Of a stretch of DNA of 64,000 nt, positions 1,254 through 39,559 are shown piece after piece. This DNA is from Chloroflexota bacterium. Lineage in GTDB: Bacteria > Chloroflexota > Dehalococcoidia > GIF9 > JBFMDU01. The position numbers and the translations under genes were made by a program. The stretch spans positions 64,811 through 128,810 of the forward strand of contig JBFMDU010000016.1 in NCBI GenBank assembly GCA_040753815.1, given 5' to 3'. A model generated the notes under the pieces. That model saw nothing but the letters and a program-made list of their open reading frames with translations, had not been told where the DNA came from and ran no database searches. The stretch's first letter is position 1. Every line of letters starts with the position of its first letter.

Positions 1254-1454
1254 ATGGATTTTTTCGGCATGGGCACCGGCGAGATATTGCTCATCCTCGT
1301 CGTCGCCCTGGTGCTCTGGGGACCAGGACGACTGGTGGAAATCAGCCGCACCATCGGCCGTACCATGCACAACCTGAGGAAGTCAACCGTTGACTTCACC
1401 GCCCAGATAACCAGGGAACTGGAAGACCAGGATAAGAAACCGCCGTCGAAATAG
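1254..1454 (+). CDS. TatA/TatB family protein (TatB-like)
   Basis: 66 aa. Sequence GEILLILVVALVLWGPGRLVEISRTIGRTM matches the TatA/B TM-hinge-amphipathic pattern (GP.RL as in TatB). Lies between tatA and tatC. Confidence 0.7.
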   Translation: MDFFGMGTGEILLILVVALVLWGPGRLVEISRTIGRTMHNLRKSTVDFTAQITRELEDQDKKPPSK

Positions 1455-1477
1455 GCGGATATAATTCATCCCACCAC

Positions 1478-2224: not shown

Positions 2225-2344
2225 CGGAAAGGAGGAAAGCCATGTACCAGTCACAGCAGACATGAGCCATCCTTTCCGTCGGAGCGTGTCTCTCCGACAA
2301 GATTGCCCGCATCCTGAAATTAAGAAAATCGAAAGGAGACCACG

Positions 2345-3403: not shown

Positions 3404-3413
3404 GGAGCAACCG

Positions 3414-5215: not shown

Positions 5216-5312
5216 GGGAGCGCCTGGGTCCCGGTGGGCTTCGCGGACTTCAAATCCGTCGGGAGGCATTTCTGATGTCTCCGGTGGGTTCGACTCCCAT
5301 GCGCTCCCGCCA
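5216..5312 (+). tRNA. selC: tRNA-Sec (anticodon UCA)
   Basis: Hand-folded. 8-bp acceptor stem (GGGAGCGC/GCGCTCCC). 6-bp D stem with a 4-nt loop. Anticodon stem GCGGA/TCCGT with loop CTTCAAA (anticodon TCA). Long 8-bp variable arm (GGAGGCAT/ATGTCTCC). 5-bp T stem with a TTCGACT loop. Discriminator G and encoded CCA. This is the 8/5 architecture of bacterial tRNA-Sec. Confidence 0.9.
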
Positions 5313-22566: not shown

Positions 22567-23610
22567 TTACCACCTCTTGTGTTTAAGTGACCACTCCCTC
22601 GCTTCATCAGCATTCTTCGGCAGGTAATCGGCGAGCATACTGGGCGGGAACTGGCCGGGATGCTGGGTCAGCACCGGCGCGTAGATTTCTGTCCGAATGT
22701 TAGGGATAGTATGCGTCTTGCGGTGGAGGGCAATGGGGATTTGCCAGGAGACTATTTCTTCACGCGAGTCAGTGGCCTCCTGGAGTATCTGGCCATGAGG
22801 GCCGACAATCATCGAGCCGCCGCCACCATAATTGACATCGGGATGGCCGAAGCTTATACCTTGGAGCGTTTCACCGGAGCCGCCATTTGAATAGATGCCA
22901 TAAAGCATGCTGGCGGCACAGTCAGAGCGGAAGATAGTGCGGTAACGCCCATGTCGGAGTCCCTCACCAGCACCGCCGATACAGCGGCACAGGATTTCCG
23001 CCCCGTTGAAGGCAAAGGCCCGGGCAGTTTCCGGCGCGAACCCTTCTGAGCAGATATAAACAGCAATATTGCCAATGGGCGTTTTTGCCACCTGCCAAAC
23101 GGCATCCCACCCATACTTAGCTACATATTTATCAAGGACATCGTGAGCGCAGGTCGAGTACTCCAGACCCATCCCGGGAAAACCGCCGTAGGCTTTCCAG
23201 TGCACATGGATGACACCCTCTTTCGGGCCAATCAGGATTGCCGAGTTGAAGAAGTGACCAGGCCATTCCCGGTCCTGCGTGTGGCTTCCGAAGGCGATGT
23301 AGCAGTTCCACTCTTTTGCCTTTTGCGCCAGAGCTTCGGTTTCCGGACCCGGAACCATGATAGCGACTTTCAGCCACTCATCCCTCGTCCATCGCTCGCT
23401 GAATCCGGTTAGAGTAAACTCGGGAAAAACGAGCAGTTGCTTTCGACCTATAGGCCACTGCTGGGCAACATCGCACAAATAGAGCATGTGCTCCAGGTTA
23501 CGCTTACGGTCGCTGGCGAGGTTCTCCAGCGTCACCGGCCTCGGGTTCATCTGTACCGTGGCCACGGTGATTTCATCATATTCAAGTGGTACTGTTCCGT
23601 ATCCCGACAT
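22567..23610 (-). CDS. Carbon-nitrogen hydrolase family amidase (aliphatic amidase/formamidase-like)
   Basis: 347 aa. Glu in VFPEFTLTGF, catalytic Cys in VYICSEGFAPE, and AEILCRC as in AmiE/AmiF (AELIVRC). Length fits the amidase branch. Confidence 0.75.
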   Translation of the reverse strand: MSGYGTVPLEYDEITVATVQMNPRPVTLENLASDRKRNLEHMLYLCDVAQQWPIGRKQLLVFPEFTLTGFSERWTRDEWLKVAIMVPGPETEALAQKAKEWNCYIAFGSHTQDREWPGHFFNSAILIGPKEGVIHVHWKAYGGFPGMGLEYSTCAHDVLDKYVAKYGWDAVWQVAKTPIGNIAVYICSEGFAPETARAFAFNGAEILCRCIGGAGEGLRHGRYRTIFRSDCAASMLYGIYSNGGSGETLQGISFGHPDVNYGGGGSMIVGPHGQILQEATDSREEIVSWQIPIALHRKTHTIPNIRTEIYAPVLTQHPGQFPPSMLADYLPKNADEAREWSLKHKRW

Positions 23611-23918: not shown

Positions 23919-25511
23919 GTGAACAAACTGTTGATTATCTACTGGACTCAAACCGGACATGTTGAAAGCATGGCCAAAGCCTGCGAAGAAGGCGCCAAGA
24001 CGGCCGGGGCCACTGATGTACGGTGCATCAAGGTGACCGAGCTGACTAAGGCGGACCTGGAAAACTATGAGGTCTTCATCTGGGGGACCGGCAACTACTT
24101 CCAGACCATGGCCGGCATGATCTGGGACTTCTTCTGCAGATACCACTACGACTTGCTGAAAATGCCCAAGGCGAAAAATAAGGTCTATTCTTGCGTCGTC
24201 AGCGCCGGCATCGGTGGGGCAATGTGCCTCGACGGTCTCAACCACCGCCTCCAGGAGCTGAAGTGGAAGCGGGCGTTCGACACGGTGGTGGCCTTCGAAG
24301 AGCCCAAGCCGGAGATTCTGGAGAAGTGCCGCGAACTAGGCAAGAAAATGGCAGAGGTAAACCCGGCGGAGGCCGCCGACCTCAACCCACCCCGAAAGCC
24401 ACGATTTGAATGGCCGGAGTACTTCCGCATGATCGCCTGGAGCGGCGTCGGCGTCGAAGTATCCAAGTCCTGGACAAAGTTCCTGGCCGAAGATACCAAG
24501 ATGAAAATCATCATCACACCGGAGAGCAACACCGTCAACCGCTTCAAATGGACCGGCCTGAAAATGTACCAGCTTACCGCCGGCGGCACTACCGAGACCA
24601 GCCAGATGCTGATGGCCGACCACAAGTACGCCTCCCGTGACACCGGCCCGTGGCCAATCCGCGCTATCTGGGCACAGTCCAAGTCATGCTCTGGTATGTT
24701 CGTCCGCGGCGATTCCCCAATCAAGACCGTCTATGACATCAAGCCTGGCACACGAGTTGCCGATATGCTCCCCTATGCCGCCAGCACCCGCATCGTTGAT
24801 GCCTACCTTGCCTGGGGCAAGATTGATAAGAAGGACGTTACCTGGGTCCCCGGCAAGAACTACCCGGAGAACGTAAAATCGGTTATCGAAGGCAAGTGCG
24901 ATGTCTGCTTCGGCATACCTACCTCACCATCAGTCGAGGAGGCTGAGAAGAACCCTCACGGCATACGCTGGCTGGAATTTAATCCCAACGAGGACCCGGA
25001 AGGATACAAGCGGTTCATCGCTCACGACCCGCTGGTCACTTTCGGTAAAATGCACGCCGGTGTGCCTTCATGCCTCGGCGTCTGGTCCAACGTCGGTGTC
25101 AGCCTCTATACCTGCCATGCCGAAATCAGCGCTATGATGACCACTCGCCTCTGCCGCTGGTTCGATGAGAACTATGAAAAATACAAGAGCGCCCATCCAT
25201 GGAACCAGTGGATGAGCCTCGATACACTGCTCGAAGAGATGGAGCACACCTTCATCCCGGCCCATGAAGGACTGGTACGCTTCCTCACCGAGAAAGGCAT
25301 CTGGACGCCGGTCCACGCCGACCGTCAGAAGCAGAACGTCGAGCTGATTGACCGCTATGTCCGCGCCTATCAGGAGGCCAAAGATATGGCCGATACTAAA
25401 GGCCTAGCCATCCAGCCGGAAAACCAGCAGTGGATTGAGCTCTGGGAAAATTATAAAAAGGAGAAGAACCTCCCGCCTTTCTACCTGTTCAAATCACTTA
25501 AGGAGGCTTAG
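23919..25511 (+). CDS. Fusion protein: WrbA/flavodoxin-like domain + leaderless TAXI-type solute-receptor-like domain
   Basis: A GTG start lies 9 nt after AAGGAG. The N-terminal ~165 aa (KLLIIYWTQTGHVESMAKACEEGAKTAGA) are flavodoxin-like. From FEWPEYFRMIAWSG onward the sequence is colinear with the four other paralogues (NTVNRFKW, ETSQMLMADHKYASRD, YDIKPG, EAEKNPHG, HEGLVRFLTEKGIW). Confidence 0.7.
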   Translation: MNKLLIIYWTQTGHVESMAKACEEGAKTAGATDVRCIKVTELTKADLENYEVFIWGTGNYFQTMAGMIWDFFCRYHYDLLKMPKAKNKVYSCVVSAGIGGAMCLDGLNHRLQELKWKRAFDTVVAFEEPKPEILEKCRELGKKMAEVNPAEAADLNPPRKPRFEWPEYFRMIAWSGVGVEVSKSWTKFLAEDTKMKIIITPESNTVNRFKWTGLKMYQLTAGGTTETSQMLMADHKYASRDTGPWPIRAIWAQSKSCSGMFVRGDSPIKTVYDIKPGTRVADMLPYAASTRIVDAYLAWGKIDKKDVTWVPGKNYPENVKSVIEGKCDVCFGIPTSPSVEEAEKNPHGIRWLEFNPNEDPEGYKRFIAHDPLVTFGKMHAGVPSCLGVWSNVGVSLYTCHAEISAMMTTRLCRWFDENYEKYKSAHPWNQWMSLDTLLEEMEHTFIPAHEGLVRFLTEKGIWTPVHADRQKQNVELIDRYVRAYQEAKDMADTKGLAIQPENQQWIELWENYKKEKNLPPFYLFKSLKEA

Positions 25512-25513
25512 TC

Positions 25514-26635
25514 ATGCCCGCTTACCCCGATTTCAAATGGCCCAGGCGCTTCAATGTCATCAACTGGGCCGGCATGGGCTACGAATCGACGAAAAGCTGG
25601 TCGGAACTGTTCGAGGCCGACACCGGCTGTAAGGTCCACGTCGCCCCCGAGTTCGATACCGTCAACCGCTTCCGCTGGCTGGGCATGGGCATGTTCCAGC
25701 TTACCGGCGGCAACCATAGCGAGACCAGCCAGATGCTTATGGCCGACCGCAAGTACGCTACTCGCGACGGGGGGCCAATTCAGGTTAGGTCGGTCTGGGT
25801 GCATTCCAAAAACAACAGCGGCTTCTTCATGCGCGGCGACTGCAAGATGGTCACACCCTATGATATCAAGCCCGGCACCAAGATGGTCCATATGACCTAC
25901 GTGGCCAACACACGCGTCGTCGAAGGCCTGCTCGCCTGGGCCAAGGTGAAGAAGGAAGACATTGACTGGATACCCGCCAACAACTCAATCGAAAACTATA
26001 AGCTGGTACTTGAGGGCAAGGCGGAAATCGGCTTCAGCTTCCCTAACTCGCCGACGATGCGCGAGGCGGAGAAGAACCCTTACGGCATCAAGTGGCTGGT
26101 GCTCGACGCTGCTAAGGACCCTGAAGGGGCAAAGCGTTTTCAGACAATCGACCCGCTCATCCGCTTCGGCATTATCCCTGAGGGCGGTGTGAAATCAGCC
26201 GCCAATGTACCCAGCACCGAAGGCATCGTTTACGAGGTCACGCTGGAAAGCACCGACCCGGCTTTCGTCTACAACCTGGCCAAATGGTTCGACCTTAACT
26301 TCAAACGGTTTCAGAAGCGCCACCCGGACAACACCTTCAAGAACCGGGAGACCCTTGCCAGAGGACTGCGCTACACCTACATCCCCTGCCACGAGGGTCT
26401 GATTGAATACCTCAAAGAGCTTGGAATCTGGACCAAGGCGCACGACATCCGGCAGAAGAAAAACACTGCGCTTATCAACCGCTATTGCGAGGCCTACCCG
26501 AAGGCGATTGAAGAAGCCGACGACCGCCAGATTGTCGTCGACCCCAAGAACCCGGACTGGCAGACATACTGGGCGGACTACAAGAATAAGCTGGGCATAC
26601 CGGAGTTCAAGCTGTTTGACGACCTGCCTAAGTAG
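25514..26635 (+). CDS. Leaderless TAXI-type (TRAP solute-receptor-like) protein, paralogue 2
   Basis: 373 aa. Starts MPAYPDFKWPRRFNVINWAGMG with no signal peptide and has an AAGGAGG RBS. The C-terminal CHEGLIEYLKELGIW corresponds to the TAXI HpGA..Y motif. Confidence 0.7.
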   Translation: MPAYPDFKWPRRFNVINWAGMGYESTKSWSELFEADTGCKVHVAPEFDTVNRFRWLGMGMFQLTGGNHSETSQMLMADRKYATRDGGPIQVRSVWVHSKNNSGFFMRGDCKMVTPYDIKPGTKMVHMTYVANTRVVEGLLAWAKVKKEDIDWIPANNSIENYKLVLEGKAEIGFSFPNSPTMREAEKNPYGIKWLVLDAAKDPEGAKRFQTIDPLIRFGIIPEGGVKSAANVPSTEGIVYEVTLESTDPAFVYNLAKWFDLNFKRFQKRHPDNTFKNRETLARGLRYTYIPCHEGLIEYLKELGIWTKAHDIRQKKNTALINRYCEAYPKAIEEADDRQIVVDPKNPDWQTYWADYKNKLGIPEFKLFDDLPK

Positions 26636-26655
26636 TACAATAGTAAACCTGACCC

Positions 26656-27894
26656 TTGAACACACACGCCAGCGCACAGGCATCTCCGACGCCTGACCTC
26701 GAAGCCGCGCAGAAACGCCAACGGCTTGTCCGGGGCTTCCCTATTGTTGCCTTTTCCATCTTTGCCGCAATGCTCGGTCTTGGCGTTGTTGCGCCGATCC
26801 TGCCGTTGTATGCCAGAGACATGGGGGCTTCCGGACTGTGGATAGGGGTTATCTTCGGCGGGTATTCGGCTTCACGGGCCGCTCTTATGCCGCTCTTCGG
26901 CTGGCTGTCAGACCGCCGCGGCCGGAAGATATTCCTGAGCATCGGCCTGGTAGCGTGCGGCGTCGTTTCCTTTGGATACGTTTTCGCCACCGACCCTCTC
27001 CTTCTCACCATGGTCCGCATCCTCCACGGTGCGGCCTCAGCCCTTGTGGTGCCCATCGCCAACGCCTGGGTCGGCGAAATGTCGCCGCGCGGCGAAGAGG
27101 GTAAATGGATGGGCTACTTCAACACCGCTTTTTTTGTTGGCTTCGGCGTCGGCCCGCTTCTCGGCGGTGTTCTCGCCGATTATTTCGGCATGGATTCCGC
27201 CTTCATTGCCATGGGCATCATTACCCTGGTGGGTTTTATCGTTGTCGTATCTTTCCTACCCGAATCTTACAAAATCCAATCGAAAAGACGCGCCGGCGGA
27301 TCTTTCAAAGAGATGGGCAAAAGCGACCCGATGAAAGGCCTCTTTGCCTACCGCATGATGTTCGAGTTGTGCATGGGCGCCTTCATGGCCTTCCTCCCGA
27401 TTTTCGCCGGCGTCCAGCTTGGCATTGACCCGACCTTCATCGGCCTTCTCGTGGCCATGAACCTATTGCTCACTTCATTCCTGCAAATATACACCGGCCG
27501 GTTGGCCGACCGCTTCAACCGGAGGCTCTTACTTATCGGCGGCAGTGTTTTTAACTTCCTCATCCTGGCGCTGATTCCGACAGCCACCGGCTTCTGGTAC
27601 CTCATGGTTATCTTGCTTATACGGGTGGCCGGTGCAACCATCACCATGCCGACCCTAGCCGCGCTGACGATTGAAGAGGGGCGCAAGTTCGGCATGGGCA
27701 CGGCTACTTCCATCCTGGCTACCGCCACCAGCATCGGCATGGCTCTGGGGCCCATCTTAGGAGGCGCCGTCAACGACATGTCAAACGTGAGCATGGTCTT
27801 TATTTTCTCGGCGGTCATGGGTACTATCGGCACTGTCATTTATGCCTGGTTCAGTCGCAAACGGCAAACGCCAGTTACACAAGGAGGAAACTGA
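26656..27894 (+). CDS. MFS transporter (12-TM type)
   Basis: 412 aa and polytopic. The loop 2-3 motif GWLSDRRGRK is typical of MFS. TTG start per the ORF track. Confidence 0.85.
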   Translation: MNTHASAQASPTPDLEAAQKRQRLVRGFPIVAFSIFAAMLGLGVVAPILPLYARDMGASGLWIGVIFGGYSASRAALMPLFGWLSDRRGRKIFLSIGLVACGVVSFGYVFATDPLLLTMVRILHGAASALVVPIANAWVGEMSPRGEEGKWMGYFNTAFFVGFGVGPLLGGVLADYFGMDSAFIAMGIITLVGFIVVVSFLPESYKIQSKRRAGGSFKEMGKSDPMKGLFAYRMMFELCMGAFMAFLPIFAGVQLGIDPTFIGLLVAMNLLLTSFLQIYTGRLADRFNRRLLLIGGSVFNFLILALIPTATGFWYLMVILLIRVAGATITMPTLAALTIEEGRKFGMGTATSILATATSIGMALGPILGGAVNDMSNVSMVFIFSAVMGTIGTVIYAWFSRKRQTPVTQGGN

Positions 27895-27897
27895 AAG

Positions 27898-28680
27898 ATG
27901 ACGGCAATTAAACCAGTAATCGTTATTGCTGCCTACGGCACCGGAGACAAAGCTGCCCAGCAGAGTCTGGAGGCTATCGATACCCTGGTCTGCAACCGCT
28001 TCCCCGGTTACGAGGTATACTGGGCCTTTACCGGGCGTGTTATCCTCCAGCGCGTCCGCGCCGCCGGCCAGATGACCCTGTTCGCCCGGAAACTTCCAAT
28101 AAGGAGCCTTGAAGAACTTTATGCCCACCTTAATATGGAAGGCAAGACAAAAGCCGCCGTCCAGTGTTTGCTGGTCCACGAAGGCAGTGAGAGCGATATG
28201 GTACTTAAGACACCAGCGCCAGGGATTAGAATAGAGTACGGCACACCACTGCTCTCCGATCCGGCCAATATCGAGCCAACACTAAAGGCCATGGCAGCGC
28301 AGTTCGGCGGCCCGACTACGGCCAACATTCTCGTCGGCCACGGTAGTGATCACGAAGCACGAGCTAATGCCCCGTTTCTCAAAATGGAAGACCTGGCTAA
28401 AAAGTACTACCGCAATGTCTTCATGGGAACGATTCACGGACTGCCCGGGACCAGCTCTTTTACCGATTTTAAGAAGGCCGACTTCAAAGATGTCCTCTTC
28501 ATCCCGCTAATGATTACCACCAGCGAGCACATCCTGAATGACGTCATGGGTGAGAAGCCGGACTCGTGGAAGAACCAGCTTGGCCTGCCCGCCAGAGTTG
28601 GCGCCAGCTTTGCCGAAACCCCGGCAGTAATGGACGTCTTCCTAAAAAGCCTGGAGCGGGTGATATCAAGGTTCCAGTAA
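27898..28680 (+). CDS. CbiK-like (class II anaerobic cobalt/sirohydrochlorin chelatase family) protein
   Basis: 260 aa. VIVIAAYGTGD, YWAFTGRVI, LVGHGSDHEA and LMITTSEHILNDV are colinear with CbiK, including both conserved His positions. Confidence 0.6.
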   Translation: MTAIKPVIVIAAYGTGDKAAQQSLEAIDTLVCNRFPGYEVYWAFTGRVILQRVRAAGQMTLFARKLPIRSLEELYAHLNMEGKTKAAVQCLLVHEGSESDMVLKTPAPGIRIEYGTPLLSDPANIEPTLKAMAAQFGGPTTANILVGHGSDHEARANAPFLKMEDLAKKYYRNVFMGTIHGLPGTSSFTDFKKADFKDVLFIPLMITTSEHILNDVMGEKPDSWKNQLGLPARVGASFAETPAVMDVFLKSLERVISRFQ

Positions 28681-28698
28681 CAAAATAGGGGTGAGCCG

Positions 28699-30012
28699 AT
28701 GAAATACGACGTGATTATCGCCGGCGCCGGCATGGCCGGTCTGATTGCCGCAAGAACCGCAGCGCGGGACGGCCTGAAGACGCTGGTGCTAGAGTCAAAG
28801 AAAAACATATCCGAAATTAACCGCGCTTGCAGTGCGGTTGTCCGTATGAGCCGTGAAGGCTTCATGACCGCCAAGAAGCCTACGGACAAGACCGTCCAGC
28901 CGGTAGAGATAACACTGGAGATGGATGCCGACAAGGCCCAGTTCCACTTTTTCCAGCTCGGTTTCTCCGTGGACTACACCGGCCCTATTCGCGTCTATCA
29001 CAATAAGGTCAACCTCTCACCATCCGGCTACGAAATCTGGAACTACCCGGACAACAACCGCTTCTGGGCTTTCCAGCTCGACAAGGAAATATTCACGGCC
29101 GACCTATTTAAAGCCGCAACCGAGGCAGGAGCCGAAATCCGGACGGAGACATCTGTCCTTACCGCCGAGAATGTTCCCGGCGGCGTCATGGTACCGGTGC
29201 AGACCAGGACCGGACAGGAAACGCTCGAGGCCAGGGCACTGGTCGCCGCCGATGGCGTCATGTCCCGCATCGTTGATACCATGGGGCTGAACGCCAAGCG
29301 ACGTCCCCTTGGCGAAAGCCGCGTCCTGATGTACATCCTCGAAGGCGTTGAAACCGGCTACCCGGAATCGACCTTTGTCACCATCGCCATTCCCAGCCTT
29401 AACAGTTACATGCTTTTCGCCCTCGGTCTGTGGCCTGGTGATACTTTCCAGCTTCATACCAGCACCACACCGGGGATCAACCTGCCAGCGGCGCTCGATG
29501 GCTTTATGAAACATCCACGCTATGCCGGCTGGTTCAAAAAAGCCAGAGTAGTCAAACGGCTCGGATGTGCCCGCATGCTGAGAATGTCGCTAGCCGAGCC
29601 GGTGGCGGGTAACATCTTTTTCGCCGGCGATGCGGTGTCTTTCGTGGAATGCTCCATCAAGGGAGCGCTGGCTGCCGGCTTCAAAGCGGCCAGGTGTGCC
29701 GCCAAACAGATGGAAGGTAAAGATGGACGGGCCGAGTTCACCGACTGGTGGCAGCACTCGTTCAACTTCAACAGCCCGCAGTACATCGCTGCCGGCCGCT
29801 CCGTTCCACGGCCAACTCAAGTACTGACTGATGAAGAGGTTAACGACCTTTACCGGATATGTAAAGGCAAGTGGGGCGTCCTCAACGACGTCATTGGTGA
29901 TAATTTGGAACTGGTCAAGAAAGAGAAACCAGCAATCTACGAGAAACTGACGGCGCCGCCAGACACAGGCGGACGGCCGGACGGGGCCGGGTTCCGCCCG
30001 ACGACACAATAG
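28699..30012 (+). CDS. FAD-dependent oxidoreductase (geranylgeranyl-reductase-like family), paralogue 2
   Basis: 437 aa. MKYDVIIAGAGMAGLIAARTAARDGLKTLVLESKK. Shares FM(R/K).PRYA, GDA and KK(D/E)(R/K)P.(L/I)YEKL blocks with the 20403-21722 gene. Confidence 0.8.
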   Translation: MKYDVIIAGAGMAGLIAARTAARDGLKTLVLESKKNISEINRACSAVVRMSREGFMTAKKPTDKTVQPVEITLEMDADKAQFHFFQLGFSVDYTGPIRVYHNKVNLSPSGYEIWNYPDNNRFWAFQLDKEIFTADLFKAATEAGAEIRTETSVLTAENVPGGVMVPVQTRTGQETLEARALVAADGVMSRIVDTMGLNAKRRPLGESRVLMYILEGVETGYPESTFVTIAIPSLNSYMLFALGLWPGDTFQLHTSTTPGINLPAALDGFMKHPRYAGWFKKARVVKRLGCARMLRMSLAEPVAGNIFFAGDAVSFVECSIKGALAAGFKAARCAAKQMEGKDGRAEFTDWWQHSFNFNSPQYIAAGRSVPRPTQVLTDEEVNDLYRICKGKWGVLNDVIGDNLELVKKEKPAIYEKLTAPPDTGGRPDGAGFRPTTQ

Positions 30013-30018
30013 TGAGGT

Positions 30019-30053
30019 GTCATCTCGAACGCAGTGAGCGCTCTGACGGGGCG
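30019..30053. repeat. REP-like element (half unit)
   Basis: GTCATCTCGAACGCAGTGAGCGCTCTGACGGGGCG matches the left-arm variant at 12982. Confidence 0.6.
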
Positions 30054-30103
30054 ACGGCAGACAGGAATCTCACCCGGCACAGTCTCTGACCTGCAGGCAG
30101 ACA

Positions 30104-30598
30104 CTACTGGTCGCTATCCGGCAAATGAGGGTTCACGGGGGAAAGCCCTAACTCCTGCAACGCTACCTTCCTCAACTCCCCGAGGTCTGCCCTCAGTCTC
30201 TGAATCTGGCCGTTATCCAACTGCGACATTATCCGTTTGATTGACTCTCGCTGTCTGGAGTCTCTCAGAGCACGCTCTCCAGCTCTGGTCAGCACCACCT
30301 TTATCTGCCCCCGGCGCCTTCTATCTTCGATACGTTTCACCAGCCCCTGCTGTTCCATGCGTATCAACAGATTGGAAACGGTCGTGGTCTCGCGAAACAG
30401 TGCTCTGGCAATATTAGCCGGCGTGGCCCTTTCGCCATAGGCATTTACCATGTATAAGGCCGCCGACTGCATAACTGTCAGCCCGTATTGGCTTAACTCC
30501 CGGTCCCTGATTTTACCAATTAGATGGCTAATGTTCCGTATCAGAGTCCAGAGATAGAAATATTCAATGTTCTTGTTACCAGACATTCGTGTTACCAC
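30104..30598 (-). CDS. MarR family transcriptional regulator
   Basis: 164 aa. PANIARALFRETTTVSNLLIRMEQQGLVKRIEDRRRRGQIKVVLTRAG winged helix. Paralogous to the 22026-22514 gene. Confidence 0.85.
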   Translation of the reverse strand: MVTRMSGNKNIEYFYLWTLIRNISHLIGKIRDRELSQYGLTVMQSAALYMVNAYGERATPANIARALFRETTTVSNLLIRMEQQGLVKRIEDRRRRGQIKVVLTRAGERALRDSRQRESIKRIMSQLDNGQIQRLRADLGELRKVALQELGLSPVNPHLPDSDQ

Positions 30599-30745
30599 CT
30601 AACGTTCTTAATGAGACTTCAAGCCTTACAAACTTACATATACCCGACGATTGGAAGCAATTATGGCAATAAGCGCCAACGATGTAAACATTTAATTGCG
30701 GTTACCTCTTGACAAAACCACCGGCATACTGCTATCCTTAAATAT

Positions 30746-30761
30746 ACGGAGTATACTCCGT
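30746..30761. promoter_or_regulatory. Perfect 16-bp palindrome (candidate MarR operator)
   Basis: ACGGAGTATACTCCGT is self-complementary. The half-site GTATACTCC is repeated again at 30762-30770. It lies in the AT-rich divergent region between marR (-) and the lipoprotein/TAXI-TRAP genes (+). Confidence 0.45.
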
Positions 30762-30859
30762 GTATACTCCATTATATCAGAGATGGCAAGACTTCGATAC
30801 CCACTTCCGGCACCTTATCTTAATAGCCGCTAGAATGTTATTATTTTAAGGAGGTTGAT

Positions 30860-31348
30860 GTGGTTAAAACAATTGGGATGTCCTGTCTCATCGTCATGAG
30901 CCTCATCGTTCTAATGCTGGCCGCCGGCTGTCCCGCCCCCGCGACAACGCCAGCAGCTAAGACTCCATCATCACCGGTAACCACTCCGCCTGCGACACCG
31001 CCAGCAGTCAAAACCCCACCAACGACCACCCCACCGGCTACTTCACCAGGCGCCCTAACCCTTGACTTCGTTTCCGCCACCGAGACCACCCCGCAGGGCG
31101 GCCCGATGAAGGTCACGGTCAAGACCGCGCCCGGCGCGAAGTGCGTTCTAACCTTTATCAACCCGGATACTGGCACTCGGAGCGCGCACCCCGCAGACAA
31201 AGAACGAATCGCCGATAGCAGCGGTCTGGCTACCTGGGAATGGGAGATAAGTAAACGGACCCACGAAGGCCAGGCTACAATCGAGGTCGTGGCCACGCTG
31301 GGAGACAAGAGTATCACCAAAACGCGGCCGTGCACGGTTAAAAACTAA
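30860..31348 (+). CDS. Small lipoprotein with Pro/Thr-rich linker, unknown function
   Basis: 162 aa. Signal peptide with lipobox LAAGC, a PATTPAAKTPSSPVTTPPATPP linker, and a ~90-aa beta-rich domain. AAGGAGG RBS before the GTG. Confidence 0.6.
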   Translation: MVKTIGMSCLIVMSLIVLMLAAGCPAPATTPAAKTPSSPVTTPPATPPAVKTPPTTTPPATSPGALTLDFVSATETTPQGGPMKVTVKTAPGAKCVLTFINPDTGTRSAHPADKERIADSSGLATWEWEISKRTHEGQATIEVVATLGDKSITKTRPCTVKN

Positions 31349-31403
31349 TACGTAGTTTATACGGCAACCATGAACAGACATGATTATGGGAGGATAAGGT
31401 AGA

Positions 31404-32693
31404 ATGAAACTAACTAATTTAAAGCTAGCTTCATGGTTCCTGATTTTCTCACTCCTTTGTACGGCTTTCTTATCGGGATGCGCACCCACCAAAGGCTCTG
31501 ATTGGAGCACCGCTGGCACAACAGGGAATGACGCCGCCGGGCCCGACCCGAACTGGAAATGGCCTGATAAGATACCCGTCGTTGCGGCGGGCACGGCAGG
31601 AGTAACCGCGCTCGTTGCCTGGTGTTCCATGCTTGAAAAAGACAGCGGCATGGCCATTATGGTGGTACCTGAGGGCAATGCCAACAAAAGGTTCTACGTC
31701 GTCAAAGACGGCGATATGTTCATCCACGAGGCCGGAAAGTCCGGTGTAAGAAACCATGCCGAAGCCATAGGAGAGGCCGCCGAGCGACAGGGCGGCGGTT
31801 TTCAGGCCAAGATTGTTTGGGTTGCCGGTAATTCCCACTCGGCGGTATTTGTCCGCGGCGACTCCAATATTAACTCTCTGTACGATATCAAACCCGGTAT
31901 CCGATGGTCGGTCTGGTCAACCGAGCCGAGCATTGTCAAGGTCCCAAAGGCGATACTCGATTGGGTGAAGATGCCTCATGACCAGGTCAAGTGGGTTATT
32001 TCAGGTTCCACTGAAGGCGCTGTCAGAGCCGTGTCTGAAGGCCGCGCCGACATCATGTGGTTTTTCCCGACATCGGAGTACATCTACGAGGCGGCGGCGG
32101 CGCCATTCGGCATCAAGTTTATCGACCTGAATTCAAAAGCTGACCCTGAGGGAGCCGCCAGGTTCCGGCTCTCTGACCCGATGTACACTTTCGGTATAAT
32201 GGGCGAGACGGTAGTCCCTGAGGCCCGCGGTCACTGGGGCACCGTCGGAGAGAAATACTACATTACCCGTGAGCAGACCGACCCCAATCTCGTCTATAAC
32301 GTCGCTAAATGGCTCGACAATAGTTATGACAAATTCAAGGACCGTCATCGTGGCCTGACCGATATGACCCGTCAAGTGCTCATGCAGGGGTTAGAAACAA
32401 CCTACGTCCCGGCCCATACCGGGCTTATCTGGTACCTGAAAGAAATAGGCCTCTGGAATGCCGACCTCGAGCGGCGCCAGAAACAGAACATCAAGATACT
32501 GCAGGTCTATATCGACGCATATGCCGAGGCCATCGCCCTCGCGGACAAAAAGGGAATTGAAGTAGTTCCAAACAACAAAGCATGGATCGAACTCTGGGAA
32601 AACTATAAAAAGGAAAAGAACCTGCCGCCAATTGCCATGCACCAAAGTCTCAAAGTCGATGCACCCTGGGTTGCTGAACTCGGATTGAAATAG
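31404..32693 (+). CDS. TAXI-family TRAP transporter solute receptor (lipoprotein)
   Basis: 429 aa. Signal peptide plus lipobox FLSGC, then WKWPDKIPVVAAGTAG and the C-terminal AHTGLIWYLKEIGLW block shared with the paralogues. Directly upstream of the fused TRAP permease. Confidence 0.75.
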   Translation: MKLTNLKLASWFLIFSLLCTAFLSGCAPTKGSDWSTAGTTGNDAAGPDPNWKWPDKIPVVAAGTAGVTALVAWCSMLEKDSGMAIMVVPEGNANKRFYVVKDGDMFIHEAGKSGVRNHAEAIGEAAERQGGGFQAKIVWVAGNSHSAVFVRGDSNINSLYDIKPGIRWSVWSTEPSIVKVPKAILDWVKMPHDQVKWVISGSTEGAVRAVSEGRADIMWFFPTSEYIYEAAAAPFGIKFIDLNSKADPEGAARFRLSDPMYTFGIMGETVVPEARGHWGTVGEKYYITREQTDPNLVYNVAKWLDNSYDKFKDRHRGLTDMTRQVLMQGLETTYVPAHTGLIWYLKEIGLWNADLERRQKQNIKILQVYIDAYAEAIALADKKGIEVVPNNKAWIELWENYKKEKNLPPIAMHQSLKVDAPWVAELGLK

Positions 32694-32742
32694 TTTTAAG
32701 ATAGTATAGAGAACCCATTCCATCCGCTCAGAAGCCGGACGG

Positions 32743-34734
32743 ATGGGTAGCAACACGATGAATCCATTACCCAAAAACGTCCGGCCTCAAAGCGACGCCG
32801 CTGGCGAGGAACAACGCAAGGGTGGCTTAAGCCGCTACTGGCTTATGCCCCTTCCGTTCAAGATTATCTTCATAACTTCCTCTCTCGCCGCACTGGTCAT
32901 TTTCATTCTTTTTTGGTTTTCCATCCCCGTTTTCGGTAACGTCCTGACCGGTGTCTGGTATTACTACATCCTGTATGCCACCCTCGGCTTTAACATCTTC
33001 CTGGGGGTCGGCGCTACGAAGGCACAGAAACGCGTGGCGCCGCGATGGTATGACTACCTGCTCGGGGCCATTCTCTGGGGAATTATCATCTACTGTCTTA
33101 TCAATCATGAAGCTATTGGCAATAATGTTTGGATCAATAACCCGACCCCACTGCAGTTTACCCTGGGGTGTATTCTCGCGTTACTGGCGCTGGAATGCGG
33201 GCGACGGGTGGGCGGCTGGGGTTTTGTTGGCATGCTGGCTTTCGCTATCATCTATCCGCTGGTTTGCGGTTATATCCCAACACAGTGGCCGATTTCTGGA
33301 TTTCCGTTGAGCTTTCAGGGCCTAATCACCGACTATGCCTTTGGCGATAACGGGATGCTGGGACTGCCCGCCCGGATTCTCGGGCACCTTGTCATTGGCT
33401 TCTATTTCTTTGCCGGCATGATGATGGGTATGGGCGGCGGAGAGTTCTTTCTTAAGTTAGCGGTGGCGCTAGCTGGCAAATACCGGGGCGGCCCCGCTAA
33501 GGTAGCTGTTATCTCCAGTGCCTTCTTCGGCAGTCTCTCCGGCAGCGTGATTGCCAATATCGCCGGCACCGGAGGCTTTACCATCCCGGCGATGAAGCGC
33601 ATGGGCTATGAACCTGAATACGCCGCTGCCGTCGAAGCATGCGCTTCTACCGGCGGCGACACTATGCCCCCCATCATGGGAGGCATATTCATCATGATCA
33701 TTATCGCCCAGGTAGAGTACGCCGATGTCCTGGTTGCCGCCATAATACCGTCGCTTCTGTATTTCTACGGCCTTCTTGTCCAGGTGGATGGTTATGCGGC
33801 GACCCACGGCCTTCGAGGCCTACCTAAGAACGAAATACCTCCTATAGGTAAAACCTTAAAGGACGGGTGGCTCTATCTGCTCATCATCGCTTTTCTTGTA
33901 TTCGGGCTGGTCTATATGCGCTGGGGTGTTATCGTCCCGGTCTATGCGGTGTTCCTGGTACTTATCCTTTCCTTCTTCACAAAAAGGACCCGATTGACAT
34001 GGCGGACCGTGGAAGGAGGCCTTGCCCAGTATGCCGGCCTACTCAATTTCGGTACCGCTATCTTCCTTCCAATGGGATTCTTCATGGTCGGCCTGCTCAA
34101 GACTGGCATGGCTGGGCGTCTTACCGCTTGGATTGTTGGCTTTGGCGGCGAGAATGTTTATCTGATACTGCTAATCGGTGTCCTCTTCAGCTTAGCTATG
34201 GGCACAGTCGGCCTTGACCGTACATCCTATCTCTTCCTGGCGGTCACCATGGCCCCGGCGGTTATCAAGATGACCGGTCTGCCGACGATCGCCGTACACC
34301 TGTTCCTCATCATGTATGGAGGAATGGGCGGGCTGACCCCACCGGTGGCCATCCATGCCTATATTGCCGCGGGAATTGCCGGCGCTGACCCAGTCAAAAC
34401 GTCCTACCGTACCGTCCGCCTTGGGATTATTCTAGCTATTTTCCCATTCTTCTTTCTTTTACAACCAGCACTAATCATCTTAAATAGCTCTCCCCTGGAT
34501 ATACTGAAGTATCTCTCGATTGCTATGGTGGGACTGGGGTTACTTGCGTCGGGACTCGAAGGTCATCTATTCAAAGTTGGCCGGCTAAGTTTGTGGCAGC
34601 GGTGTCTCCTCATCCCGGGAGGATTCTTGTTTGCCTTCCCCGATTGGTCATCAACGATAGTAGGTGTAGTTATGTGCGCGGCCGCGATTACACCTGCACT
34701 GGTGCGTAAAAGATTAACCGTTAAAACGGGATAA
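32743..34734 (+). CDS. TRAP transporter fused 4TM/12TM permease (TAXI-associated type)
   Basis: 663-aa polytopic protein. GGPAKVAVISSAFFGSLSGSVIANIAGTGGFTIPAMKRMGY and ASTGGDTMPPIMG are hallmark DctM-like motifs. Confidence 0.9.
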   Translation: MGSNTMNPLPKNVRPQSDAAGEEQRKGGLSRYWLMPLPFKIIFITSSLAALVIFILFWFSIPVFGNVLTGVWYYYILYATLGFNIFLGVGATKAQKRVAPRWYDYLLGAILWGIIIYCLINHEAIGNNVWINNPTPLQFTLGCILALLALECGRRVGGWGFVGMLAFAIIYPLVCGYIPTQWPISGFPLSFQGLITDYAFGDNGMLGLPARILGHLVIGFYFFAGMMMGMGGGEFFLKLAVALAGKYRGGPAKVAVISSAFFGSLSGSVIANIAGTGGFTIPAMKRMGYEPEYAAAVEACASTGGDTMPPIMGGIFIMIIIAQVEYADVLVAAIIPSLLYFYGLLVQVDGYAATHGLRGLPKNEIPPIGKTLKDGWLYLLIIAFLVFGLVYMRWGVIVPVYAVFLVLILSFFTKRTRLTWRTVEGGLAQYAGLLNFGTAIFLPMGFFMVGLLKTGMAGRLTAWIVGFGGENVYLILLIGVLFSLAMGTVGLDRTSYLFLAVTMAPAVIKMTGLPTIAVHLFLIMYGGMGGLTPPVAIHAYIAAGIAGADPVKTSYRTVRLGIILAIFPFFFLLQPALIILNSSPLDILKYLSIAMVGLGLLASGLEGHLFKVGRLSLWQRCLLIPGGFLFAFPDWSSTIVGVVMCAAAITPALVRKRLTVKTG

Positions 34735-34800
34735 GCTTTCCCAGCGAATTAGTTGCCTATTATCAAACTACAATTTTTTCTAGAGGGGGTAAATCAATAA

Positions 34801-35949
34801 ATGGCTAAAAAAAACTTCCGCTGGCCCGACAGTATCCGGGTCATCGGCTGGACGGGACTCGGAGTCAACATCTACAACGCCTGGGTGCCGAAGATATGCA
34901 AAGACACCGGCATGAGACAGCGCATCGCCAACACCAAGGACAGCCTGGAGCGATTCAAGTACACCAAGCTGGGGCTGTTCGATATGACCGCCGGCGGCAC
35001 CACCGAAACCAGCCTGATGATGGAGGGCGATCGCCGCTTCGCCGACCGCGACACCGGGCCTTACCAGATAAGAGTGGTCTGGGTGCAATCTCGCGGCAAC
35101 TCCGGAATCGTGGTCAGGGGCGATTCCCACATCAAGAACATTTACGACATCAAACCCGGGGTACGCGTGGTGGACATGCGTCACTATGTCGCCAGTCAGC
35201 GTATCCAGGAAGCCTGCCTTGCCTGGGCAGGTCTCAAGGACATCGAAAAAGAAGTCCAGTGGGTGCCGGCATACAGTTCCGAGGAGAAAGTGAAACTGAT
35301 TGTTGACGGCAAAGCCGATATGACCCACATCGTCTCATCAACTGTCGCCGTGGTGGAAGCCGAAAAGAACCCGCACGGCCTGCGCTGGATAGACCTGAAC
35401 GAAGAGAAGGACCCGGTGGGCGCCGCATGGTTCCGCGCCCATGACCCGCTGGTCGCCTTCGGCCCAATGTTCAACGGACCGCCATCTTGCATCGGCGTCT
35501 GGGGCACCATCGGCACCAGCCTCTACATCACCAACGAAAAAAGCGACGCTGAATACGTATACCACCTGGCGAAGTGGATGGATGAGAACTGGTCCCGCTA
35601 CAAAGACGGGCATCCCTGGTGCAAATACATGACCCGTGATAACTTGATGGACGAGCTTAATCATACTTTCTACCCCTGCCACGAGGGCCTGATTGCCTAT
35701 TTGAAAGAGCTCGGCCTGTGGACGGCTGACCACGACCGGCGTCAGAAATTCAACGTTGGCATGGTCACCCGCTACTGTGAGGCTAACACCGCCGCCATCG
35801 CCAAAGCCGACGAGATGAACCTGTGGGTAAACCACCAGAACCCGAAGTGGATTGAGTTCTGGGAGAACTACAAGAAGGAAATAAACCTGCCCAAGTTCCG
35901 CATGTTCCGCAACATTAAGACCGATGAATTCGCCGCTGGAAGGAGATAA
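34801..35949 (+). CDS. Leaderless TAXI-type protein, paralogue 4
   Basis: 382 aa. Starts MAKKNFRWPDSIRVIGWTGLG with no signal peptide. Contains GGTTETSLMMEGDRRFADRDTGP, YDIKPG, EAEKNPHG and CHEGLIAYLKELGLW. Confidence 0.7.
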   Translation: MAKKNFRWPDSIRVIGWTGLGVNIYNAWVPKICKDTGMRQRIANTKDSLERFKYTKLGLFDMTAGGTTETSLMMEGDRRFADRDTGPYQIRVVWVQSRGNSGIVVRGDSHIKNIYDIKPGVRVVDMRHYVASQRIQEACLAWAGLKDIEKEVQWVPAYSSEEKVKLIVDGKADMTHIVSSTVAVVEAEKNPHGLRWIDLNEEKDPVGAAWFRAHDPLVAFGPMFNGPPSCIGVWGTIGTSLYITNEKSDAEYVYHLAKWMDENWSRYKDGHPWCKYMTRDNLMDELNHTFYPCHEGLIAYLKELGLWTADHDRRQKFNVGMVTRYCEANTAAIAKADEMNLWVNHQNPKWIEFWENYKKEINLPKFRMFRNIKTDEFAAGRR

Positions 35950-35952
35950 CCC

Positions 35953-37101
35953 ATGCCTGCTAAGAAAAGCTACAAATGGCCTGAAAAACACCGCATCCTG
36001 ACCTGGTCCGGCGTCGCTGTTGATGGCGCCCATAGCTGGGCCGACCTGCTTCAGCAGGATACCGGCATGAAATTCCAGATTGGCGGCGACTACAACACGG
36101 TCAACCGCTTCCGCTGGCTGGGACGGGTCGGGCTGTCCGACCAGACTATCGGCGCTCCTAGCGAGACCAGCCAGATGGTCATGGCTGACCGCAAATATGC
36201 TGTCCGCGACGGCGGGCCTTTCCAGGTAAGGGTCGTATGGATGCAGTCCAAAGGGAACGCCGCTTTCTTCACCCGCGGCGATTCAAAAATCAAGACACCT
36301 TACGATATCAAGCCCGGTACACGCATTACCGATATGAACCCCTACGCTGCCGCCACCCGCGTCGTCGAAGGCCTGCTGGCCTGGGCCAAGGTCGATCCCA
36401 AGGAAATCCAGTGGGTGCCGGTCCACAATCCAGAAGAGAACATCGGGGCCGTTGTTTCAGGCAAGGCCGATATCTGCTTCAGCTTTCCTATCAACCCGCT
36501 TATCCACGAAGCCGCTAAGAACCCGCTCGGCCTGGGCATTGTAGAGACCAACGCTGAGAAGGACCCTGAGGGCGCCAGACGCTTTCGCGAAAAGGACCCG
36601 CTGGTCAATTTCGGCATCATTCCTGAAGAAAGCCTCAAGGCCGCCGGTGGCAAATGGGGCACGCAGGGCCTCAACCTGGAACTGACCAACGAACGTGTTG
36701 ACGCCGAACTCATCTACCACATCGCCAAATGGCTCGATGAGAACTACGACCGCTACAAGGACCGCCATAGAGAGAACCGATTCCGCACCCGTTTCTGGTT
36801 GATGAAAGCGCTGGAGCAGACTTTTGTCCCCGCCCATGAGGGCCTTATCGCCTACTTAAAGGACCTCAAGCTCTGGACCGACAAGCACGAGCGGCGCCAG
36901 CAAAAGAACCTGGAACTGCTAACCCGCTACTGTGACGATTATCAGAAACTTATCTGGGCGGCTGATGACGCCAACATCGAGGTCACCCCCATTAACGAGA
37001 AGTGGGTGCGTCTCTGGACGGAATACCGCGACGCGGTACTGCCGCCAATCAAGCTTTTCACCAGCCTCGATGACGAACAGATGGTTGGCGACATTGGTTA
37101 A
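35953..37101 (+). CDS. Leaderless TAXI-type protein, paralogue 5
   Basis: 382 aa. Starts MPAKKSYKWPEKHRILTWSG with no signal peptide. Contains NTVNRFRWLG, ETSQMVMADRKYAVRDGGP, YDIKPG and AHEGLIAYLKDLKLW. GGAAGGAG RBS. Confidence 0.7.
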   Translation: MPAKKSYKWPEKHRILTWSGVAVDGAHSWADLLQQDTGMKFQIGGDYNTVNRFRWLGRVGLSDQTIGAPSETSQMVMADRKYAVRDGGPFQVRVVWMQSKGNAAFFTRGDSKIKTPYDIKPGTRITDMNPYAAATRVVEGLLAWAKVDPKEIQWVPVHNPEENIGAVVSGKADICFSFPINPLIHEAAKNPLGLGIVETNAEKDPEGARRFREKDPLVNFGIIPEESLKAAGGKWGTQGLNLELTNERVDAELIYHIAKWLDENYDRYKDRHRENRFRTRFWLMKALEQTFVPAHEGLIAYLKDLKLWTDKHERRQQKNLELLTRYCDDYQKLIWAADDANIEVTPINEKWVRLWTEYRDAVLPPIKLFTSLDDEQMVGDIG

Positions 37102-37111
37102 GGAGGTCTTA

Positions 37112-38152
37112 ATGAACGATACCTTTCTAAGAGCTTGTCGTGGCGAGCCGGTTACCTATACGCCGGTCTGGGTAATGCGGCAGGCAGGACGCAGTCTGCC
37201 CAGGTTCCGCAAAATCTATGACCGCCTCGGCTTCATGAAGATGATTCTCGACCCGGATATATGCGCCGAGGCGACCGTCATGCCCGTTGATGAACTCGGC
37301 GTTGATGCCGCCATTCTCTTTTCCGACATGCTCAACCCGGTAATGCCGATGGGCATGAATCTTGTCTACGAGGTCGGCAAAGGCCCCAAGTACGAACCGC
37401 TAATCAGGAGTAAAGCTGAGGTTGACCGCCTGCGCGTACCTGATGCTGAAAAAAGCCTGGACTATGTGATGAAAAGCATCAAGCTGGCTTCAAAAGCCCT
37501 AAGAAACAAGGTGCCGCTTATCGGGTTTTCCGGCGCGCCGTTTACCCTTGCTGGCTACATGATTGAAGGCGGCCAGTCAATGCGCTACTTCTACACCAAA
37601 CGGATGCTCTTTGAGGAGCCCAAGACTTTCCACGCTTTGATGACCAAGCTGACCGACTTCACCTGCGATTACGTCAATGCCCAGGTCAAGGCCGGCGTTG
37701 ACGCCATGATGCTGTTCGAAAACTGGGCGGTGATTCTGAACCGGCGCGACTATGCAGAATTCGCCCTGCCCTACGTCAAACAAGTGGTGTCATCGCTGAG
37801 AAGAAACGGCGCCAGAGCGGTTCCGATAATCATCTTCTTCAACGGCTTCTCCGCACTCGCCGACGAAATTAAGGCTACTGGCGCCGACGTTATCGGCATT
37901 GATTACCGAACCAACCTTGACCAGGCCATCAAGAAACTCGGACCGCGTTTCGCCGTCCAGGGCAACATCGACCCCTTTTGCCTCTTCTTGCCTCAGAAGC
38001 AGATGGAGACACGGGTCAAAGAAATCCTGCGCATGGGCGCTAAGGCTAAAGGGTTCATCTTCAACCTCGGCGAAACCGTCCAGCCTGAGACGCCCAAAGA
38101 GCGAATTGTTGCCCTGGTAGATGCGGTCCATCGCCTGGGCAAGGCCCATTAG
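37112..38152 (+). CDS. Uroporphyrinogen decarboxylase (URO-D) family protein, HemE-like
   Basis: 346 aa from the ATG after AAGGAGG. FLRACRGEPVTYTPVWVMRQAGRSLPRF, LFSDML, GFSGAPFTLAGYM, QGNIDP and FNLGETVQPETP are colinear with HemE. The usual GHG reads GET. The ORF-track start at 36932 overlaps the upstream gene and is rejected. Confidence 0.75.
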   Translation: MNDTFLRACRGEPVTYTPVWVMRQAGRSLPRFRKIYDRLGFMKMILDPDICAEATVMPVDELGVDAAILFSDMLNPVMPMGMNLVYEVGKGPKYEPLIRSKAEVDRLRVPDAEKSLDYVMKSIKLASKALRNKVPLIGFSGAPFTLAGYMIEGGQSMRYFYTKRMLFEEPKTFHALMTKLTDFTCDYVNAQVKAGVDAMMLFENWAVILNRRDYAEFALPYVKQVVSSLRRNGARAVPIIIFFNGFSALADEIKATGADVIGIDYRTNLDQAIKKLGPRFAVQGNIDPFCLFLPQKQMETRVKEILRMGAKAKGFIFNLGETVQPETPKERIVALVDAVHRLGKAH

Positions 38153-39512: not shown

Positions 39513-39559
39513 TTCTTTATCAAGCGAGAGTAAAGAGCAAATCAAAAACGGAGACGCTA

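Follow-up and report, generated by a model that had tools for sequence, protein, structure and literature searches.

The only role known for proteins of the TAXI family is that of extracellular receptors which serve TRAP-type and related transporters. The receptors of solved structure (VcGluP/VC0430, 8s4j and 9ibo; Thermus TtGluBP, 1us4/8u79; and an Ehrlichia protein, 4ddd) have a two-lobe fold and carry the C-terminal motif H-x-G-(L/A)-x-x-Y-L. In this work, we analyzed a stretch of 64,000 nucleotides (the window) from a Chloroflexota bacterium of the class Dehalococcoidia (contig JBFMDU010000016.1, positions 64,811 to 128,810), in which five genes of the forward strand code for TAXI-type proteins, named here A (23919-25511), B (25514-26635), C (31404-32693), D (34801-35949), and E (35953-37101). 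C is an exported receptor that adjoins a fused TRAP permease. A, B, D, and E share the fold and the motif of the solved receptors; unlike them, they have no signal peptide, they occur as pairs or fusions of two subtypes, which we call alpha and beta, and their identity to the solved proteins is only 15-17%. They also have a helical C-terminal extension of about 75 residues, which is absent from the solved TAXI proteins and common to an exported group of "long TAXI" proteins.

Cytoplasmic enzymes with a binding-protein fold are present in other families, such as the hydroxymethylpyrimidine phosphate (HMP-P) synthase Thi5/NMT1, DszB, MqnA/MqnD, HisG, and HemC. Thi5, DszB, MqnA/MqnD, and HisG are a precedent for a fold that leaves transport to become a cytoplasmic enzyme; however, they belong to other families, and none of them is derived from TAXI proteins, heteromeric, or fused to a flavodoxin. 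No example that is TAXI-derived, heteromeric, or flavodoxin-fused was found, either in the family libraries or in the literature searched. HemC and HemD are two-lobe proteins of alpha/beta structure with an Arg-rich cleft that accommodates polycarboxylate (oligo)pyrroles. The alpha and beta proteins described here show no detectable sequence kinship to HemC and do not conserve its cofactor Cys, whereas a HemD domain is fused to one alpha protein. HemG and the flavodoxin-dependent reduction of corrinoids likewise combine a flavin mononucleotide (FMN) flavodoxin domain with tetrapyrrole-related partners, although the domain of A matches Flavodoxin_1/WrbA-like models and not HemG. Finally, the metal-site His residues of CbiK, CbiK(P), and FetB are kept in a CbiK-like partner of the leaderless genes, which differs in that its acidic ligand is often His, it is sometimes fused to a flavodoxin, and it scores below the equivalog level.

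Fold and kinship of the five paralogues

An original prediction, made from the letters of the window without database searches, had described five colinear TAXI-type paralogues here, and this description holds: the five open reading frames (ORFs) are present, they align colinearly across about 372-380 residues with pairwise identities of 35-50%, and their TAXI fold is significant both by profile and by Foldseek comparison. In the profile searches, Pfam PF16868 NMT1_3 (cut-off 27) gave 29.4 bits for A, 38.9 for C, 53.4 for D, and 32.7 for E, with B below the cut-off at 17.0. TIGR02122 matched all five with 26-68 bits, none reaching its cut-off of 84.35, and PF09084 (NMT1/THI5-like) matched only E, with 16.5 bits, below the cut-off of 20.5. 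The family profile compared with the PDB matched the solved TAXI receptors 8s4j/9ibo (E 5e-11). The AlphaFold model of E has a predicted local distance difference test score (pLDDT) of 95 and a predicted template-modelling score (pTM) of 0.91; when it was compared with the PDB by Foldseek, the seven best matches were all TAXI structures (E about 1e-14, TM 0.61-0.71), followed by ThiY, SsuA, Thi5, and PhnD. In this model, the last ~75 residues form two long helices added to the TAXI core. A, B, D, and E are members of the TAXI family by fold and descent.

All five proteins have the W-P start, the motif YDIKPG, the H(E/T)GL block, and C-terminal helices with RQ..N...Y, as originally noted. Two further motifs had been listed as shared and proved variable: in place of EAEKNP, C has EAAAAP and E has EAAKNP, and DPEG reads DPVG in D. 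The pattern formed by NTVNRF(R/K)W and ETSQM...RD.GP was correctly described: A, B, and E carry both motifs, D has a diverged version, and the exported C lacks them.

Export signals and start sites

Only C has a lipoprotein signal, with a hydrophobic N-terminus that ends in the lipobox FLSGC, and it lies upstream of the gene for a fused TRAP permease of the DctQ/DctM type (32743-34734, forward strand; TIGR02123 446 bits, cut-off 321; PF06808 251 bits), both as originally proposed. A, B, D, and E have neither a hydrophobic segment nor a lipobox. Longer forms with a hidden signal peptide, which the original prediction had named among the findings that would speak against it, are impossible for B, D, and E because in-frame stops lie 12, 0, and 3 nucleotides (nt), respectively, upstream of their ATG codons. 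These ATGs are preceded by their own Shine-Dalgarno (SD) sites (AAGGAGG, AGAGGGGG, and GGAAGGAG in the same order), and the N-termini are hydrophilic and lead directly into strand 1 of the fold. For A, the maximal ORF begins at 23868, and the likely start is the GTG at 23919 with the SD AAGGAAAGGAG, the one already chosen from the letters; its orthologue P0045 begins with MNKLLIIYW.

The leaderless state was called from the stop codons, checks of hydropathy and lipobox, the alignment of mature domains, and the N-terminal fusions to cytoplasmic domains. A set of 264 homologues split cleanly in the same way: in one group the protein begins with the mature "WP" segment, and in the other a signal peptide or lipobox comes first, with a linker after it that is often rich in Glu and Pro. 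More than 80 homologues, drawn from independent assemblies, share the same leaderless N-terminus. A candidate Tat motif in B ("PRRFNVI") was dismissed, since this stretch forms strand 1 of the mature fold, where it is aligned with the equivalent strand of C and the other paralogues.

As judged from their sequences, A, B, D, and E are probably cytoplasmic and not transport receptors, a location reinforced by the N-terminal flavodoxin and HemD fusions and by the strong purifying selection presented below. Public records name D (MEW6142446) and E (MEW6142447) a "TAXI family TRAP transporter solute-binding subunit" and B (MEW6142438) a "hypothetical protein" (NCBI/PGAP). Since the leaderless proteins lack the signal that defines an extracytoplasmic receptor and score under the TIGR02122 cut-off, they should not be classed as subunits of a transporter; the naming of B, D, and E is inconsistent, and the function of transporter subunit is probably wrong. 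As for the permease, it is flanked by C and by D/E in the window and likewise at loci L001, L005, and L012 of the homologues; in L005, the leaderless genes sit between the genes for the exported receptor and the permease. Most loci, however, have leaderless pairs and no permease within the available DNA (L003, L004, L007, L008, L014, L034, and L036).

A single clade with alpha and beta subtypes

In a neighbour-joining tree of 243 domains, every leaderless protein falls in one clade of 94 tips (82 plain, 6 fused, 6 unclassified, and none exported), whose sister is an exported clade of 17 members that includes C. The phylogeny therefore sets the leaderless copies apart from the exported ones as one group and indicates that the family arose once, from a C-like exported TAXI receptor that lost its lipoprotein signal. 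Within the clade, a deep split separates an alpha branch of 34 tips, with A and D, from a beta branch of 60 tips, with B and E; the duplication into alpha and beta would have come after the loss of export.

The two subtypes are adjacent in ten non-redundant loci, where alpha is nearly always first and a second beta gene sometimes follows. In the window, B starts 2 nt past the stop of A, and D is likewise followed by E. Moreover, alpha and beta are joined in frame in a natural fusion of 765 amino acids (aa), found at 8828-11125 in L012/L022 and at 8828-11125 in L023, in two assemblies whose DNA is 93% identical; D groups with domain 1 of this fusion (alpha) and E with domain 2 (beta). P0121 is a third alpha-beta fusion protein. 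The fusion locus (L012/L022, L023) also holds two tandem fused TRAP permeases.

The ratio of non-synonymous to synonymous substitutions (dN/dS) against orthologues was 0.07 for A, 0.05 for B, 0.04 for D, and 0.03 for E, values equal to or lower than those of C, HemE, and the CbiK-like protein. With ratios of 0.03-0.07, the four leaderless genes are functional. The proposal that the leaderless copies are cytoplasmic proteins recruited from transport, as enzymes, substrate chaperones, or sensors, is thus supported, at least as to location and descent, by the stop codons, the significant TAXI fold, the flavodoxin and HemD fusions, and the purifying selection. The alpha/beta pairing, the natural fusion of both subtypes, the origin from a single clade, and the conserved partners (CbiK-like, HemE, and HemD) go beyond what had been proposed.

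The family is small and restricted to the class Dehalococcoidia of the Chloroflexota. Searches with E and D gave 156 and 104 homologue clusters, respectively, all from metagenomes or metagenome-assembled genomes (MAGs) and named "hypothetical" or "TAXI family...". A motif-pattern search found the family in at least 3 of 185,579 species genomes and at least 15 metagenome loci; the patterns were taken from an alignment of eight sequences and detect only members that bear the motifs, so these counts are lower bounds. In an exhaustive profile search, the leaderless clade reduced to about six representatives at 50% identity, and about 200 strong matches were "long TAXI" proteins, which are exported and carry the same extension at the C-terminus. 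An exact look-up of E and of P0341, the CbiK-like protein identical to that of the window, for annotated context returned no record. In agreement with the original statement that no function is described for such a set, none of the curated families scanned (Pfam, NCBIfam) describes the leaderless clade, and a full-text literature search returned no paper that deals with leaderless TAXI proteins or with this set of genes.

The ligand pocket

The ligand of VcGluP is contacted by S75, Q93, H123, E125, G156, D157, Y200, and M201, and its pocket uses no Arg or Lys (PMC11574862). When these published contacts were mapped by profile alignment, the motifs of the leaderless clade fell on the contact segments, with NTVNRFRW over S75, ETSQM after Q93, and SK.N over H123/E125. 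Unlike VcGluP, A, B, D, and E have a pocket rich in conserved Arg and Lys: R52, R54, R80, K/R81, K/R100, R136, and K189 are conserved specifically in the leaderless proteins, whereas the corresponding positions are neutral or acidic in the exported sister clade (Cys/Ala, Glu, Asp, Leu, Asn, Ala; Asp at 99). The gain of conserved Arg and Lys in the pocket segments suggests that the leaderless pocket has been remodelled and that its ligand would be more anionic than those of the exported relatives.

Fusion partners and neighbouring genes

The partners of the leaderless genes were counted over 16 distinct loci. A CbiK-like gene, the most constant partner, was found in 9 of the 16, and a flavodoxin domain also in 9; HemE paralogues were present in 7 and MarR genes adjoin the pairs in 7, followed by carbon-nitrogen (CN) hydrolases (6-7), one orthologous group of SBP_bac_5 lipoproteins (6), MFS transporters (4-5), and the TRAP permease (3).

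In A, a predicted FMN flavodoxin domain (about aa 1-150) precedes the leaderless alpha-type domain. PF00258 matches aa 23-157 of the 547-aa ORF with 35.8 bits, above its cut-off of 25, whereas the flavodoxin equivalog models remained below their cut-offs, and the AlphaFold model of A has a pLDDT of 88.8 and a pTM of 0.69. Flavodoxin domains are fused to the N-terminus of A, P0045, P0060, P0069, P0071, P0307, and P0314, and every TAXI-like protein that is fused to a flavodoxin or to HemD belongs to the alpha type. The same flavodoxin type (flavodoxin/FMN_red) is joined to the CbiK-like protein in L003, L005, and L034.

The CbiK-like gene of the window (27898-28680, forward strand; PF06180 103 bits) codes for a homologue of class II chelatases that aligns end to end with D. 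vulgaris CbiK (2xvx), the heme-binding FetB (9b86), and Salmonella CbiK (1qgo), although it scores 72.6 bits with the CbiK equivalog NF047852, below the cut-off of 400. It belongs to a small group of 40 matches found only in Dehalococcoidia (P0341-P0380), in which His148 is conserved in 39 proteins and His211 in all 40. Position 180, which we take to be the acidic metal-site residue in the structures of D. vulgaris and Salmonella CbiK, is occupied by His in 25 of the 40 and by Glu in 14 (GTIHG in the window).

The gene that follows E by 10 nt (37112-38152, forward strand) is a HemE paralogue, of the uroporphyrinogen decarboxylase family. Its start is the ATG at 37112, with the SD AAGGAGG and a canonical N-terminus (MNDTFL...); the longer ORF 36932-38152 overlaps the end of E, and its first 60 codons (36932-37111) were discarded as a spurious extension given this evidence. 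The HemE paralogues score 379-406 bits with TIGR01464 (cut-off 303), the window copy 379, and the latter gave 300 bits with Shigella HemE (3cyv). It keeps the motifs MRQAGR and LFSD, and its NLGHG is changed to NLGET; the paralogues have NLGDG, so that the His of this motif is replaced by Asp or Glu in all of them (window; L012; L007, L008, L014, and L036). At least three HemE paralogues are found in one MAG, and two of these lie in tandem in L012 (16953-17984 and 17998-19038). The replacement of this His and the multiple copies are unusual for a housekeeping enzyme, and they suggest altered substrates.

In P0122 (649 aa), a HemD domain (HEM4, 126 bits) is fused to an alpha protein, and in L033 (3645-6397) a free gene of the HemD family precedes this fusion, with overlapping stop and start codons. 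Upstream of both lies a gene for a 724-aa SBP_bac_5 lipoprotein (1400-3574). The other members of this orthologous group, 54-60% identical and distantly similar to DppA/NikA/CntA, are found in L003 (12448-14175), L008 (4881-7082), L017 (1525-3222 and 7010-9193), and L020, and no ABC permease gene lies near these recurrent lipoprotein genes. L038 holds one more SBP_bac_5 gene (3152-4642), detected through Pfam alone, which is outside the group comparison.

The CN hydrolase of the window (22567-23610, reverse strand; PF00795 104 bits) was considered as a core partner and then downgraded to a possible accessory gene; it is formamidase-like, with formamidases as its best PDB relatives, whereas the recurrent partner is an enzyme of ~290 aa similar to Nit/PH0642.

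Proposed role and alternatives

We propose that the alpha and beta proteins form a cytoplasmic ligand-binding module of a flavodoxin-dependent pathway which acts, most likely, on a polycarboxylate of the tetrapyrrole type, and we give this reading a probability of about one half. Outside the cell, C or the recurrent family-5 lipoprotein would capture an anionic polycarboxylate of this type, perhaps similar to uro- or coproporphyrin(ogen) or a metallated relative, and the TRAP permease would import it. In the cytoplasm, alpha and beta would act jointly as one ligand-binding unit, presumably as a physical heteromer, and would hold the imported ligand, either as catalysts or as carriers only. On the ligand so held, electrons borne by the flavodoxin, the HemE-like decarboxylase, and the CbiK-like (de)chelatase would act, the flavodoxin supplying or removing electrons and the metal being inserted or taken out. 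A bolder form of this proposal, which we hold tentatively and think rather less likely to be right than wrong, is that the cluster belongs to a new anaerobic pathway of subsurface Dehalococcoidia, in which a novel cytoplasmic and heteromeric family derived from receptors salvages, remodels, or redox-cycles tetrapyrroles together with flavodoxin or HemD, HemE, and CbiK-type partners; imported porphyrins may, for example, be reduced to porphyrinogens, or metals may be stripped or inserted.

Several observations weigh against a tetrapyrrole-type ligand and the module built around it. About half of the loci lack HemE and HemD within the available DNA, and the HemD domains score 57-65 against NCBIfam equivalog cut-offs of at least 246. 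The extra basic residues of the pocket are compatible with any polyanionic ligand, and the orientation of the flavodoxin relative to the alpha domain is only moderately defined in the model of A (pTM 0.69). To our knowledge, TRAP systems are known for small acids and not for molecules of the size of porphyrins. The presence of several paralogous sets per genome is a poor fit to a simple housekeeping role, and a scan of the window and 11 loci with Rfam revealed no cobalamin or other riboswitch, only a selenocysteine tRNA (tRNA-Sec). Furthermore, the recurrent Nit-type CN hydrolase, family III coenzyme A (CoA)-transferases, and aldehyde:ferredoxin oxidoreductase point as much to the catabolism of organic acids, and PNPOx-like proteins and acetolactate decarboxylase are likewise among the recurrent neighbours of this kind.

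These neighbours lead to a less likely alternative, in which alpha and beta are cytoplasmic subunits that bind or convert a carboxylate imported by TRAP systems and unrelated to tetrapyrroles, such as an aromatic, keto-, or amido-dicarboxylic acid; aryl- or heteroaryl-acetates would then be decarboxylated by the HemE-like proteins without a cofactor, and the function of the CbiK-like protein would be other than chelation. The MarR regulators found at 7 of the 16 loci belong to a group whose members often sense aromatic acids, a Nit-type amidase gene in L036 lies between two TAXI-like genes with abutting stops and starts, three family III CoA-transferases follow downstream in L005, an aldehyde:ferredoxin oxidoreductase, a 4HBT thioesterase, and an AMP-ligase are encoded nearby, and the characterised TAXI ligands are small acids, e.g., glutamate (PMC11574862). 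What such a carboxylate leaves unexplained is the recurrence of three families of tetrapyrrole enzymes, HemE with an equivalog score, HemD in a fusion, and CbiK with an intact metal site, as well as the fusion of a flavodoxin to the CbiK-like protein. Another reading, which we consider improbable, is that the pairs are non-orthologous replacements for a housekeeping step in the anaerobic synthesis of heme or siroheme; the module would be an oxygen-independent porphyrinogen oxidase, flavodoxin-dependent in the manner of HemG, or a polymerase similar to HemC that passes its product to HemD and HemE. The order alpha, beta, HemE with spacers of 3-10 nt, the HemD fusion to alpha, the flavodoxin fusions together with faint matches of homologues to Flavodoxin_5 (the HemG family), and the binding-protein-like fold of HemC would all agree with such a step; however, it does not account for at least four loci with pairs and at least three HemE paralogues per genome, or for the linkage of the pairs to importers, MarR regulators, and amidases. 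Moreover, the alignment of the five paralogues has no universally conserved Cys for a covalent cofactor of the HemC type, position 294 being Cys or Ala, and no other hem genes were found in the window.

An even less probable role is that of ligand sensors which would modulate the adjacent MarR proteins, response regulators, or transporter but would not themselves act on the ligand. Many loci do have MarR or GerE-type response regulators beside them, and the distant homologue P0219 bears an N-terminal segment similar to a helix-turn-helix, but no alpha or beta protein has a DNA-binding or signalling domain, their fusion partners being redox and biosynthetic, and two or three copies per operon with very low dN/dS fit better to stoichiometric components of metabolism. 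Finally, the view that the four leaderless proteins are conventional extracytoplasmic receptors of the TAXI type, whose starts were called wrongly or which are exported by a non-classical route such as riding on a partner, agrees with the public naming of D and E and with their position directly downstream of the permease, yet it is already largely refuted by the stop codons that exclude longer N-termini, the >80 homologues that are leaderless alike, the flavodoxin and HemD fusions without signals, and the absence of a permease from most loci, and we regard it as very improbable.

A clade of this kind, with export lost, a cytoplasmic module of two subunits, and redox and tetrapyrrole fusions, would be the first case of an intracellular role in the TAXI family, and the leaderless set is a potential new component of a pathway. 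A systematic mis-annotation, that of D and E as transporter subunits, would be corrected as well. Dehalococcoidia are abundant and mostly uncultured anaerobes of the subsurface which rely on scavenged tetrapyrrole cofactors, and a dedicated system for the uptake and processing of tetrapyrroles would have implications for their supply of heme or corrinoids and for what becomes of porphyrins in sediments.

Accessory and other genes of the window

Between the two leaderless pairs, on either side of the CbiK-like gene, lie accessory genes. The MFS transporter (26656-27894, forward strand; PF07690 201 bits) has similar genes that adjoin pairs in L012, L034, and L036. The flavin adenine dinucleotide (FAD) oxidoreductase of the geranylgeranyl-reductase family (28699-30012, forward strand; TIGR02032 82.6 bits, below the cut-off; Pfam FAD_binding_3 and DAO) has conserved counterparts at the orthologous loci L001, L016, and L018 only. 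A second gene of this family is found at 20403-21722 in the reverse strand, such that the two FAD paralogues, of 439 and 437 aa, lie within 10 kb, and for both the best named models remain far under their cut-offs. The MarR-family regulator of the window (30104-30598, reverse strand; PF12802 38.8 bits) is divergent from the transporter operon.

Downstream of HemE, an Fe-S protein with two CCG domains (38241-39512, forward strand; PF02754 100 bits, Fer4_8), whose start was inferred from an orthologue in L008, is followed by an FAD_binding_4 (GlcD-like) flavoprotein (39560-41137, forward strand; PF01565 61 bits). Both appear to be accessory. The L008 orthologues are 65% and 67% identical, respectively, and the former is encoded near a D/E pair; genes for a CCG Fe-S protein with one or two FAD_binding_4 proteins are thus found after HemE in the window (38241-41137) and near the D/E pair in L008 (1-4147), and they were not found after HemE in the close relative L018. 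In other loci, two small proteins, encoded in L017 (4110-5030) and L013 (1-683, reverse strand), share the N-terminal sequence "MEW(D/E).EAA.E(F/I)VK(I/M)P"; the one of L017 has a 4Fe-4S ferredoxin domain and a borderline domain of siroheme-type nitrite/sulfite reductases (27.8 bits, cut-off 27).

Just upstream of the cluster, a predicted lipoprotein of 973 aa (17426-20347, forward strand) has a signal with a Cys and a linker rich in Pro and Thr; it gave zero Pfam matches and has no relative among the other loci. The tRNA-Sec gene, at 5216-5308 in the forward strand (Rfam 72.5 bits), is adjoined by the likely genes for SelB (9478-11331, reverse strand), SelA (11481-12866, reverse strand), and SelD (13260-14174, forward strand), the last two assigned by synteny with the Pfam-annotated L001 and SelB from its N-terminal GTPase motif only. 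This arrangement indicates that the organism uses selenocysteine.

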